Origin: Escherichia coli
GTDB lineage: Bacteria; Pseudomonadota; Gammaproteobacteria; Enterobacterales; Enterobacteriaceae
Assembly (NCBI RefSeq): GCF_024502345.1
Contig: NZ_JALDNN010000001.1
Length of the DNA: 64,000 nt
Reading direction: 5' to 3' (one strand)
How positions within the stretch are numbered: position 1 is the first letter of the stretch; the number at the start of each line of letters is the position of its first letter. Below the pieces are notes generated by a model. The model was not told the DNA's origin and did no database searches. It was given only the letters and a program-made list of their open reading frames with translations. The position numbers and the translations under genes are program-made. This document shows positions 37,696-42,959 of the stretch, piece by piece.

Positions 37696-38066
37696 CTATA
37701 CTTCCTCCGTGTTTTCGATGAGATGTAAGGTAACCAATTTTTACCGATTCGGCTAATGCGTTTCCATTATCAAATCGATAAGTTTTACCTTACAACCTTC
37801 GTAAGACAACTTTGTGAACTTTGCACCGCCAGCGGCGATAAAAAGTAAAATGGCCCCCTTTCCAGGTGACCGTGTAATCTGAACTACCCTTTGGTATCTT
37901 CAGCGCCTGCCTGCAGGCTGAGGTGTTGCCCTTACAAATGCAACAACGACATGGATTACAACACCCTCATAAACAAAGGGCAATCACCTGATCTAAGCTC
38001 TTACCTATGACAGTGATAGGTTATGCCTTTTACTCGACTTTTGCACTGACTGAAAAGGACAAATTA
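37696..38066. promoter_or_regulatory. ahpC / dsbG divergent control region (expected OxyR-dependent ahpC promoter)
   Basis: Position only; OxyR regulation of ahpCF is established knowledge, the site itself was not pinpointed. Confidence 0.3.
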
Positions 38067-39021: not shown

Positions 39022-39924
39022 ATGGCCAATCTCTACGACTTGAAAAAGTTCGACTTAAATCTTCTTGTCATATTTGAGTGTATTTACCAGCATTTAAGCA
39101 TTAGCAAAGCTGCTGAATCACTATATATCACCCCATCAGCCGTGAGCCAGTCGTTACAACGCTTACGTGCGCAATTTAATGACCCTTTATTCATTCGCTC
39201 AGGAAAAGGTATCGCGCCGACGACAACAGGGTTGAATCTGCATCACCATCTTGAGAAAAATCTCAGAGGCCTTGAACAAACAATTAATATAGTCAATAAG
39301 TCCGAACTAAAGAAAAACTTTATTATCTACGGCCCTCAGCTCATTTCTTGCTCTAATAATAGTATGCTGATCCGCTGCCTACGGCAAGATGCCTCTGTCG
39401 AGATTGAGTGCCATGATATCCTCATGTCAGCAGAGAATGCTGAAGAACTGTTGGTTCACCGCAAAGCCGATCTGGTGATCACCCAAATGCCAGTGATCAG
39501 CCGTTCCGTCATTTGCATGCCATTGCATACGATTCGCAATACTCTCATTTGTAGTAATAGGCATCCACGAATTACTGACAATAGCACTTATGAACAAATT
39601 ATGGCAGAAGAGTTCACCCAATTAATATCTAAATCAGCAGGGGTTGATGATATTCAAATGGAAATAGACGAGAGATTTATGAATCGCAAAATTTCATTTC
39701 GTGGTTCCTCTTTGCTGACAATCATTAATAGCATTGCAGTTACAGATTTACTGGGAATAGTCCCCTATGAACTTTATAACTCCCACCGTGACTCTCTTAA
39801 TTTAAAAGAGATAAAACTAGAACATCCGTTACCTTCAATAAAGCCTTACATTTCCTATAATAAATCTTCTTTAAACAATCTGGTGTTCTCACGATTTATT
39901 GACCGTCTAAATGAGTGTTTTTGA
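39022..39924 (+). CDS. ybdO: LysR-family transcriptional regulator YbdO
   Basis: 300 aa; N-terminal HTH (ITPSAVSQSLQRLR); AT-rich gene. Confidence 0.88.
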   Translation: MANLYDLKKFDLNLLVIFECIYQHLSISKAAESLYITPSAVSQSLQRLRAQFNDPLFIRSGKGIAPTTTGLNLHHHLEKNLRGLEQTINIVNKSELKKNFIIYGPQLISCSNNSMLIRCLRQDASVEIECHDILMSAENAEELLVHRKADLVITQMPVISRSVICMPLHTIRNTLICSNRHPRITDNSTYEQIMAEEFTQLISKSAGVDDIQMEIDERFMNRKISFRGSSLLTIINSIAVTDLLGIVPYELYNSHRDSLNLKEIKLEHPLPSIKPYISYNKSSLNNLVFSRFIDRLNECF

Positions 39925-40176
39925 TATATAACCTCAGACAGCTACTATAACTTTCACCTATTTATTCACAGCGCGAATGAAAAATAAAACACTCTGCTTT
40001 TCAGTGTTTACTTTATAATTAACAGTCTTATCTCACTGATCACCCTGTAACGTTCAGAGAGCGTCTTCAGATGTCTATTTATAAAATTCCTCTTCCGCTC
40101 AATATTCTGGAAGCTGCACGAGAGCGTATTACCTGGACACTCAACACCCTACCCCGCGTTTGTGTCTCATTTTCTG

Positions 40177-40185
40177 GCGGCAAAG
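40177..40185. repeat. target-site duplication, left copy
   Basis: GCGGCAAAG immediately 5' of the left repeat; identical 9-mer at 41243..41251. Confidence 0.85.
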
Positions 40186-40203
40186 GGCTTTGTTGAATAA
40201 ATC
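40186..40203. repeat. IS903-family left terminal inverted repeat
   Basis: GGCTTTGTTGAATAAATC. Confidence 0.9.
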
Positions 40204-40262
40204 GAACTTTTGCTGAGTTGAAGGATCAGATCACGTATCTTCCCGACAACGCAGACCGTTCC

Positions 40263-41186
40263 GTGGCAAAGCAAAAGTTCAAAATCACCAACTGGCCCAC
40301 CTACAATAAAGCCCTCATCAACCGTGGCTCCATAACTTTCTGGCTGGATGATGAAGCTATTCAGGCCTGGTATGAGTCAGCAACACCTTCTTCACGAGGC
40401 AGACCTCAGCGCTATTCTGACCTTGCCATCACGACTGTGCTGGTCATTAAACGCGTATTCAGGCTGACCCTGCGCGCTGCGCAGGGCTTTATTGATTCCA
40501 TTTTTTCTCTGATGAACGTTCCGCTACGCTGCCCGGATTACAGCTGTGTCAGCAGGCGGGCAAAGTCGGTTAATGTCAGTTTCAAAACGCCCACCCGGGG
40601 TGAAATCGCACACCTGGTAATTGATTCCACCGGGCTGAAGGTCTTCGGTGAAGGCGAGTGGAAAGTCAAAAAGCATGGCCAGGAACGCCGCCGTATCTGG
40701 CGTAAGCTGCATCTCGCCGTTGACAGTAAAACACATGAAATCATCTGCGCTGACCTGTCGCTGAACAACGTTACGGACTCAGAGGCCTTCCCCGGGTTAA
40801 TCCGGCAAACCCACCGGAAAATCAGGTCAGCCGCCGCCGATGGCGCTTACGATACCCGGCTATGTCACGATGAACTGCGGCGTAAGAAAATCAGCGCGCT
40901 TATCCCTCCCCGAAAAGGTGCGGGTTACTGGCCCGGTGAATATGCAGACCGTAACCGTGCAGTGGCTAATCAGCGAATGACCGGGAGTAATGCGCGGTGG
41001 AAATGGACAACAGATTACAACCGTCGCTCGATAGCGGAAACGGCGATGTACCGGGTAAAACAGCTGTTCGGGGGTTCACTGACACTGCGTGACTACGATG
41101 GTCAGGTTGCAGAGGCTATGGCCCTGGTACGAGCGCTGAACAAAATGACGAAAGCAGGTATGCCTGAAAGCGTGCGTATTGCCTGA
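40263..41186 (+). CDS. IS903-family transposase (DDE)
   Basis: 307 codons from GTG (track ORF starts at an upstream TTG, 40218); fills almost the whole element; strong resemblance to IS903/IS102 transposase as recalled. Confidence 0.88.
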   Translation: MAKQKFKITNWPTYNKALINRGSITFWLDDEAIQAWYESATPSSRGRPQRYSDLAITTVLVIKRVFRLTLRAAQGFIDSIFSLMNVPLRCPDYSCVSRRAKSVNVSFKTPTRGEIAHLVIDSTGLKVFGEGEWKVKKHGQERRRIWRKLHLAVDSKTHEIICADLSLNNVTDSEAFPGLIRQTHRKIRSAAADGAYDTRLCHDELRRKKISALIPPRKGAGYWPGEYADRNRAVANQRMTGSNARWKWTTDYNRRSIAETAMYRVKQLFGGSLTLRDYDGQVAEAMALVRALNKMTKAGMPESVRIA

Positions 41187-41224
41187 AAACACAACCCGCT
41201 ACGGGGGAGACTTACCCGAAATCT

Positions 41225-41242
41225 GATTTATTCAACAAAGCC
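41225..41242. repeat. IS903-family right terminal inverted repeat
   Basis: GATTTATTCAACAAAGCC, exact reverse complement of the left repeat. Confidence 0.9.
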
Positions 41243-41251
41243 GCGGCAAAG
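41243..41251. repeat. target-site duplication, right copy
   Basis: GCGGCAAAG immediately 3' of the right repeat. Confidence 0.85.
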
Positions 41252-42329
41252 ACTCTGGTTTAATGCTGCATCTGACAGCCGAACTTGCCCGACAAATGGG
41301 CAAAAAAATCTGCGTTTTGTTTATCGACTGGGAGGCGCAATTCTCTTGCACCATTAACTATGTTCAGTCCCTGCGCGAGTTGTACACCGATGTCATCGAA
41401 GAGTTTTACTGGGTTGCGCTCCCGCTTACGACGCAAAATTCCCTTTCACAATACCAACCCGAATGGCAGTGCTGGGAACCTGATGTCGAATGGGTGCGTC
41501 AGCCCCCGCAAGATGCGATAACCGATCCTGACTTTTTCTGCTTTTACCAGCCAGGCATGACCTTCGAACAATTTGTACGTGAGTTTGCCGAATGGTTTTC
41601 ACAAAAACGTCCGGCGGCGATGATGATCGGCATCCGTGCGGATGAGTCCTACAACCGTTTTGTCGCCATCGCCAGTTTAAATAAACAACGTTTTGCCGAC
41701 GATAAACCCTGGACTACGGCCGCACCAGGCGGTCATAGCTGGTACATTTATCCCATTTACGACTGGAAAGTGGCTGATATCTGGACCTGGTATGCAAATC
41801 ATCAAAGTCTCTGCAACCCACTGTATAACCTAATGTATCAGGCAGGCGTTCCTCTGCGTCATATGCGAATTTGCGAACCTTTTGGCCCGGAGCAACGACA
41901 AGGATTATGGCTCTATCACGTTATCGAACCGGATCGCTGGGCTGCTATGTGCGCACGAGTCAGCGGGGTAAAAAGTGGCGGCATTTACGCCGGACATGAC
42001 AATCATTTCTATGGGCATCGGAAAATCCTCAAGCCAGAACATTTAGACTGGCAAGAATATGCATTATTGCTGCTCAATAGCATGCCGGAAAAAACAGCTG
42101 AGCATTACCGCAATAAAATCGCCATTTATTTGCACTGGTATCAGAAAAAAGGCATCGAGGTTCCACAAACCCAGCAAGGGGACATTGGCGCGAAAGATAT
42201 CCCCTCCTGGCGGCGGATATGCAAAGTTTTACTCAATAACGATTACTGGTGTCGGGCATTATCATTTAGTCCTACGAAAGCGAAGAACTATCAGCGTTAT
42301 AACAAACGGATAAAAGGAAAACGTCAGGA

Positions 42330-42959
42330 ATGGGGGATACTATGCAACAACGATTAACGCAGGATTTAACGCAATTTCTCGCCAGCTTGCCGGAAGATGA
42401 TCGCATCAAAGCGATTAATGAAATCCGCATGGCGATCCATCAGGTTAGCCCCTTTCGTGAAGAGCCAGTGGATTGCGTTCTGTGGGTTAAAAACAGCCAA
42501 CTTATGCCTAATGATTACAACCCAAACAACGTGGCACCACCCGAAAAAAAACTGCTGAAAAAATCCATTGAAATAGATGGTTTTACCCAACCCATTGTGG
42601 TCACGCATACGGATAAAAATGCCCTGGAAATCGTGGATGGTTTTCACCGCCATGAAATTGGTAAAGGCTCATCATCATTAAAATTACGCTTAAAAGGTTA
42701 TTTGCCGGTGACCTGTCTGGAAGGTACGCGTAATCAACGCATCGCCGCGACTATTCGTCATAATCGCGCTCGTGGACGCCATCAAATCACCGCCATGTCG
42801 GAAATCGTCCGTGAACTTAGCCAGTTGGGATGGGACGATAATAAAATTGGCAAAGAGCTGGGAATGGACAGCGACGAAGTGCTGCGCCTGAAGCAAATTA
42901 ACGGCCTGCAAGAGTTGTTTGCCGACCGTCAATATTCCCGCGCCTGGACGGTTAAATAG
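42330..42959 (+). CDS. ybdM: ParB/Srx-like nuclease-domain protein YbdM
   Basis: 209 aa; start overlaps ybdN end by 28 bp; ParB N-terminal-domain-like protein. Confidence 0.85.
   Translation: MGDTMQQRLTQDLTQFLASLPEDDRIKAINEIRMAIHQVSPFREEPVDCVLWVKNSQLMPNDYNPNNVAPPEKKLLKKSIEIDGFTQPIVVTHTDKNALEIVDGFHRHEIGKGSSSLKLRLKGYLPVTCLEGTRNQRIAATIRHNRARGRHQITAMSEIVRELSQLGWDDNKIGKELGMDSDEVLRLKQINGLQELFADRQYSRAWTVK

Follow-up and report, generated by a model that had tools for sequence, protein, structure and literature searches.

IS903B is commonest on the resistance plasmids of enterobacteria, and IS903 inserts either simply or via cointegrates. The DDE transposase of IS903 cleaves the target with a 9-bp stagger and the subsequent gap repair yields a duplication; real transposition is recognizable by such an exact duplication of the target. 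IS903B has been described as 1,057 bp long with 9-bp direct repeats, and its insertion into mgrB of Klebsiella or into the promoter of that gene, for which insertion "hotspots" were reported, leads to colistin resistance (PMC10513040). A replicative mode of IS903 has been described (PMC3003695), and its preferred target was given as WTTYA-N9-TRAAW (PMC2577343, Table 1). In Escherichia coli, ybdN and ybdM form an operon strongly repressed by CitR (PMC9068703). The closest described relatives of the two encoded proteins are IbrA and IbrB, a PAPS-reductase-like and ParB-like pair of which YbdN and YbdM are core-genome counterparts by annotation and domains only: RefSeq calls YbdM an "IbrB-like domain-containing protein", one protein in the 90% cluster of YbdN bears the name "immunoglobulin-binding regulator", and the shared domains are PAPS_reduct and DUF3440 in YbdN and ParB_N in YbdM. 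The literature on DUF3440 yielded nothing functional, and similarities of YbdN and YbdM to DndC, BrxP and MTase in PADLOC were weak and below threshold, so that no defence-system assignment is made for them.

In the 64,000-nucleotide stretch of E. coli DNA analyzed here (the window), a complete IS903B copy interrupts ybdN (Table 1). The case resembles that of Klebsiella mgrB in the element, the 9-bp direct repeats, the inactivation of a chromosomal gene and the plasmid copy as likely donor, but the mgrB knockout has a known and strongly selected phenotype whereas the ybdN insertion displayed no evident selection. Neither the element nor this kind of event is new; what the set of 5,426 complete E. 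coli genomes does not contain is an insertion at this site (ybdN nt 107-115).

Table 1. Coordinates of the interrupted ybdN locus in the window, followed by ybdN lesions found in other public sequences.
Feature	Position	Strand	Remarks
citR (ybdO), LysR-type repressor of ybdNM, intact	39022..39924	+	NF047710, 463 bits (cut-off 400)
ybdN 5' stub ORF, 41 aa (38 native codons, Gly-Leu-Cys, stop)	40071..40196	+	same product on 5 other public contigs
Left target-site duplication copy, GCGGCAAAG, 9 bp	40177..40185		ybdN nt 107-115
IS903B, complete, 1,057 bp	40186..41242	+	transposase gene codirectional with ybdN; full-length 100% identity to plasmid copies
Left terminal inverted repeat, GGCTTTGTTGAATAAATC, 18 bp	40186..40203	+	
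Transposase CDS, PGAP call, 322 aa	40218..41186	+	TTG start; as WP_000654812.1
Right terminal inverted repeat	41225..41242	-	exact reverse complement of left repeat
Right target-site duplication copy, GCGGCAAAG	41243..41251		
ybdN 3' remnant, rest of codon 39 to stop	41252..42357	+	identical remnant on ENA contig L006
ybdM, IbrB-like / ParB_N-like, 209 aa, intact	42330..42959	+	overlaps ybdN stop by 28 nt
ybdN, +1 C frameshift			L018
ybdN, 64-bp deletion between GAGAGCGT repeats			L019; repeats at window 40057 and 40120
ybdN, IS1 insertion with CGCGTTTG duplication	about nt 84-92 of ybdN		L020, L021 (CP019071.1, JAJKRN010000016.1)
ybdN, IS1-mediated deletion, also removing citR			L023 (CP025886.1)
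ybdN, start codon ATG to ATA			L024
ybdN, W22 to stop, on two allele backgrounds			L025; L026-L031

On its nucleotide identity, the element is IS903B, of the IS903 group of the IS5 family. Along its whole length of 1,057 bp it was 100% identical to copies annotated by PGAP as "IS5-like element IS903B family transposase", full-length identical copies were found on plasmids of E. coli, Salmonella and Citrobacter, and at least 5,000 plasmid records, mostly from Klebsiella, matched it. Its transposase scored 357.4 bits against NCBIfam NF033579 (IS5-family transposase, cut-off 140 bits) and contained the Pfam domains DDE_Tnp_1_5 (PF13737) and DDE_Tnp_1 (PF01609), while the exact protein, named IS903B family transposase, occurred on at least 1,000 public contigs. 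The IS903-family assignment proposed in a preliminary description of this DNA is borne out by the identity to annotated copies and by the NF033579 score. The structural traits of the IS903 group were present (length, 18-bp inverted repeats, 9-bp duplication, a single DDE transposase ORF and near-identity to a PGAP-labelled isoform), as they are in IS903B copies on enterobacterial plasmids and chromosomes, from which this one differed by its insertion site only.

The 18-bp perfect inverted repeats, the 9-bp target duplication and the length of 1057 bp, all claimed earlier, were reproduced on exact realignment and agree with the published features of IS903B (PMC10513040). Identity between the inverted repeats ended exactly at 18 bp, GCGGCAAAG was present on both sides, and the interval 40186-41242 amounts to 1,057 bp. 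With up to three mismatches allowed, the inverted-repeat pattern occurred at two places only in the 64-kb window, against a chance expectation of 0.07 matches, and none of 100 shuffles gave two matches; the chance of an exact 9-bp repeat adjoining both ends of the element is about 4^-9. The only long ORF of the element (40218-41186, plus strand) corresponds exactly to the PGAP coding sequence of one IS903B-annotated record, and an alternative GTG start at 40263 would give a 307-aa form. The catalytic residues are D136, D208 and E274 in the 322-aa form, or D121, D193 and E259 in the numbering of the 307-aa form, as used in the IS903 literature. The copy is unaltered and presumably active, because its ORF and ends are intact and it is identical to widely spread copies.

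The interrupted gene is ybdN as judged by the domain content of its product and the local gene order (dsbG, citR (ybdO), ybdN, ybdM, ybdL), which is the usual context of ybdN. Deletion of the element and of one repeat copy gave a 406-codon ORF from 40071, with SGGKDS at residues 35-40; the uninterrupted frame predicted earlier was recovered, and public data contain proteins identical to the restored one. Restored YbdN displayed the domains PAPS_reduct (PF01507, 30-234) and DUF3440 (PF11922, 237-383), as well as a weak PP-loop match (PF01171, 30-68). The SGGKDS PP-loop is the ATP-pyrophosphatase motif of the PAPS-reductase-like domain. That the insertion splits this motif was correct in the preliminary description, but its placement after codon 38 needs a slight adjustment, as the element starts after the first base of codon 39 (between the G and the AC of Asp39) and not at the boundary of codons 38 and 39.

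The stub protein ends in SFSGGK-GLC, with its stop codon within the inverted repeat. On the other side of the element, the longest ORF of the 3' remnant starts at Met43 (41263-42357, 364 aa) and is devoid of the PP-loop, and no Shine-Dalgarno sequence was evident before Met43. Truncation at residue 38 of 406 would abolish YbdN activity. The YbdN allele of the window (restored ORF 40071-40185 joined to 41252-42357) encodes Lys390 (42307-42309) where 14 of 14 other alleles examined encode Glu390; exact copies of this allele were found on 55 public contigs, and it marks the lineage of the window.

A simple insertion of IS903B into chromosomal ybdN is almost certainly the explanation of this structure. 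Many E. coli genomes contain several copies of IS903B, at as many as 47 places in one genome, and a repeated copy could have been misplaced inside ybdN during assembly. Consistent with such an artefact, 300-bp probes detected neither junction, in either orientation, in any of the 5,426 complete E. coli genomes, and the exact junction patterns were absent from GTDB representative genomes and JGI metagenome contigs. A misplaced repeat, however, would not yield an exact 9-bp duplication that is single-copy in near-identical relatives, and separate assemblies from ENA and Logan show the two junctions again, which makes an assembly artefact practically negligible as an explanation. The right junction was found on an ENA metagenome contig (ERZ27268145 k141_112528) that spans 139 nt of the element, the duplication, the ybdN remnant and the start of ybdM, with 100% identity over 1,527 bp (window 41104-42630). 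The left junction was found in the same orientation on ENA contigs from ERZ19695678 and ERZ27268145 (two of the five other contigs with the stub), which end about 140 nt inside the element, as expected of a k=141 assembly reaching a repeat. The independent support for the junctions, on which the preliminary description had made the authenticity of the insertion depend, is hence available for both of them.

The metagenome contigs with the left junction differed from the window at 3 to 5 positions in 3.1 kb. These contigs (L012 and L013) differed at 37743, 38112 and 38279, in the ahpC-dsbG intergenic region and dsbG, where isolates with an empty site agree with the window; these differences may reflect a strain-mixture consensus or a sister clone.

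The element could in principle mark a larger rearrangement, namely recombination between two IS903B copies, an unresolved cointegrate or the end of a composite transposon, since IS903 can form cointegrates and IS copies are substrates for recombination. Only one IS903B is present in the 64-kb window, though, and the identical 9-bp repeat stands on both sides of it. Both flanks of the element belong to the E. coli core genome; between rihA and fes they align collinearly with strain HS, and they are collinear with close relatives as well. Differing 9-mers at the two ends or non-adjacent flanks were looked for as signs of rearrangement and neither was seen, so that this reading is scarcely credible next to simple insertion.

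Many E. coli chromosomes contain the reconstructed 300-bp empty site with 100% identity, in a gene annotated as ybdN, and the site was covered over at least 80% of its length in 4,014 of the 5,426 complete genomes. The 55 public contigs with exact copies of the restored 406-aa YbdN include those of close relatives, five of which (L007-L011, e.g., GCA_028757225.1 and GCA_023599245.1) were compared and have GCGGCAAAG in one copy. In 13.2 kb of flanking DNA (left, 6.1 kb; right, 7.1 kb), these five were 99.89 to 100% identical to the window, with 0 to 3 SNPs per flank segment and up to 4 in total. They also share the rare 507-bp ybdR deletion of the window. As near-identical relatives carry the empty site, the sequence data strongly support a recent insertion that postdates the very shallow divergence from these relatives. 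The comparison with ybdN of related strains suggested in the preliminary description therefore agrees with its view of a recent and cleanly mapped event. The ybdN::IS903B allele is not unique to the genome of the window, and it appeared to have spread within one clone only.

Several other features characterize the host lineage. Compared with E. coli HS and most genomes, a clean 507-bp deletion between 34649 and 34650 has taken away the DNA between uspG and ybdR together with the first 137 codons of ybdR, which encodes a zinc-dependent alcohol dehydrogenase; its breakpoints displayed no obvious microhomology. The same deletion junction was found in FDAARGOS_943 and FDAARGOS_944, in L007-L011 and in L015, and its presence in close relatives indicates that it predates the IS903B insertion. 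Between rihA and ybeL, a 1.27-kb AT-rich islet (367-1640, 36% GC) is absent from HS and was found in 12 of the 5,426 complete genomes, annotated as a DUF6985 domain protein. Its two ORFs (856-1377 and 427-816), both on the minus strand, share a reading frame with a single in-frame stop (856-858) between them, and are probably a single gene split by a nonsense mutation; no NCBIfam family was found for either. The right flank (41252-64000, ybdL to fes, including the ent/fep cluster) shared 97.7% identity with HS and no more than 98.6% with any of the 5,426 complete genomes, which indicates that the complete E. coli genomes of RefSeq do not include the host lineage. FepE was 95% identical at the protein level, and draft relatives were 100% identical over the first 7 kb of this flank.

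Downstream of the element, the overlap of ybdM with the ybdN stop codon suggests that the insertion probably lowers ybdM expression by polarity, ybdM being probably translationally coupled to ybdN. A promoter at the right end of the element, hybrid or reading outwards, might instead alter the expression of ybdM or of truncated YbdN, which would make the insertion a regulatory change and not a plain knockout. The geometry would allow read-through, as the transposase gene points towards the ybdN remnant and ybdM, and ybdM is intact. Yet a consensus scan found no promoter-like site at or across the right end, and the promoter and terminator scan as a whole gave nothing above shuffled expectation. 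A Met43 product would come without PP-loop or preceding Shine-Dalgarno sequence, and no account of an outward promoter of IS903 was found in the literature. A regulatory effect of this kind is very unlikely, and a knockout with probable polarity on ybdM is the preferred reading.

A second insertion was found at the same site in another lineage. Logan contig SRR34049315_119 (L014/L016) displayed the identical junction base, GGCGGCAAAG directly followed by GGCTTTGTTGAATAAATC, equivalent to window 40185 and 40186. Its next 11 bases matched the other end of the element (29/29 against 23/29), indicating the opposite orientation; the left junction alone was recovered. The background of this contig has an intact 412-aa ybdR and differed from the window at 26 positions in 3.1 kb and at 92 in 9.6 kb (9.6 SNPs per kb). 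Given this different background, in the state of ybdR and in the 26 SNPs over 3.1 kb, the contig is judged to carry an independent IS903-type insertion at the same base pair.

The published consensus does not explain the choice of the ybdN site, which agreed with it at 4 of 10 positions, a score reached by 46% of the positions of the window. The consensus is a preference and not a requirement, and has no bearing on membership in IS903. Two hits on the same base pair, in opposite orientations and on independent backgrounds, together with the IS1 insertion about 20 bp upstream in CP019071.1 and JAJKRN010000016.1, would fit a genuine IS903 hotspot at about nt 100-120 of ybdN, where a local feature attracts the transposase and targeting is not left to chance. 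Against this stand the poor fit to the consensus and the ascertainment bias of a look-up based on the 41-aa stub, which can find same-site events only. The second allele is moreover known from its left junction only, and public data contain so many IS903B insertions that a single coincidence is not very unlikely. A genuine hotspot is therefore a tentative reading, with chance targeting favored. Candidate causes may be DNA structure or nucleoid-protein binding in the citR-ybdN region controlled by H-NS and CitR. The short 5' segment of this CitR/H-NS-silenced gene also collects IS1 insertions, which might point to targeting by chromatin or structure. The more specific proposal that nt 107-115 of ybdN are a natural hotspot of IS903, unpredicted by the consensus, used independently at least twice and in both orientations, with chromatin or DNA structure rather than sequence possibly directing the element, is speculative and on the doubtful side.

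Decay of ybdN was recurrent in public data. At least 8 independent lesions, including IS903 twice, were located in the first 126 nt of the gene (L018-L031 and the same-site events; equivalent to window 40071-40196). The 5' probe of ybdN had no match in 1,336 of the 5,426 complete E. coli genomes (about a quarter), and Met43 remnant ORFs of other YbdN alleles were common. The idea that such 364-aa Met43 ORFs represent many IS hits was rejected, mapping having shown mixed causes that include point mutations, and one candidate lesion (L022) was dropped as uninformative because it consists of a scaffold gap of Ns. Closest to the present case are the IS1 insertion (in CP019071.1 and JAJKRN010000016.1), with CGCGTTTG as duplication, and the IS1-mediated deletion (CP025886.1), which affect the same gene about 20 to 40 bp from the IS903B site and leave the same Met43 remnant ORF, but involve another IS family and other lineages.

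Relaxed selection on a silent and dispensable operon is the simplest reading of ybdNM decay. Loss of ybdN could alternatively be positively selected, expression of ybdNM being costly or toxic, in which case the IS allele would have risen by selection and not by drift. The presence of at least 8 independent lesions in the first 126 nt alone is compatible with it, as are the strong repression of the operon by CitR and the frameshifts of ybdM in E2863 (L002, 5229-5857) and in L010 (7194-7824). Sampling of millions of assemblies is nevertheless expected to reveal this same pattern of lesions in a silent, dispensable gene on which selection is relaxed. In FDAARGOS_943, citR is split by IS1 and ybdNM is intact (L005, 14524-16202), which argues against strong toxicity on derepression. 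Positive selection for the loss of ybdN is thus unlikely, and relaxed selection is retained.

The course of events proposed is that a functional IS903B copy transposed into chromosomal ybdN by simple insertion. The donor would have been a plasmid copy, considering that IS903B is predominantly plasmid-borne (compare PMC10513040). The DDE transposase would have made a 9-bp staggered cut at GCGGCAAAG, with gap repair generating the flanking duplication. A stub of 41 residues would be left of YbdN, a product re-initiated at Met43, if made, would be devoid of the nucleotide-binding loop, and ybdM expression would be lowered by polarity. The insertion was most likely neutral or nearly so, given that ybdNM is repressed by CitR, has no match to its 5' probe in about a quarter of the complete genomes and is inactivated in many lineages.

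Taken as a whole, the insertion is a real and cleanly mapped event, an ordinary IS knockout of a CitR-repressed and repeatedly decaying gene. As a textbook case of a known IS entering a normally silent gene that is not essential, it has little importance in itself, and its biological weight is lower than first estimated, because the allele is not unique, the same site was hit elsewhere and ybdN was repeatedly inactivated. The allele ybdN::IS903B provides a clean lineage marker of one E. coli clone, sampled in several public datasets, that also has the 507-bp ybdR deletion and the rare rihA-ybeL islet. It is a sign of exposure of the strain to IS903B, which usually arrives on resistance plasmids. 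Its residual value lies in the same-site insertion of opposite orientation and in the recurrent decay of ybdN, and it adds one data point on the choice of targets by IS903 in vivo and on the frequent loss of the IbrAB-like ybdNM.
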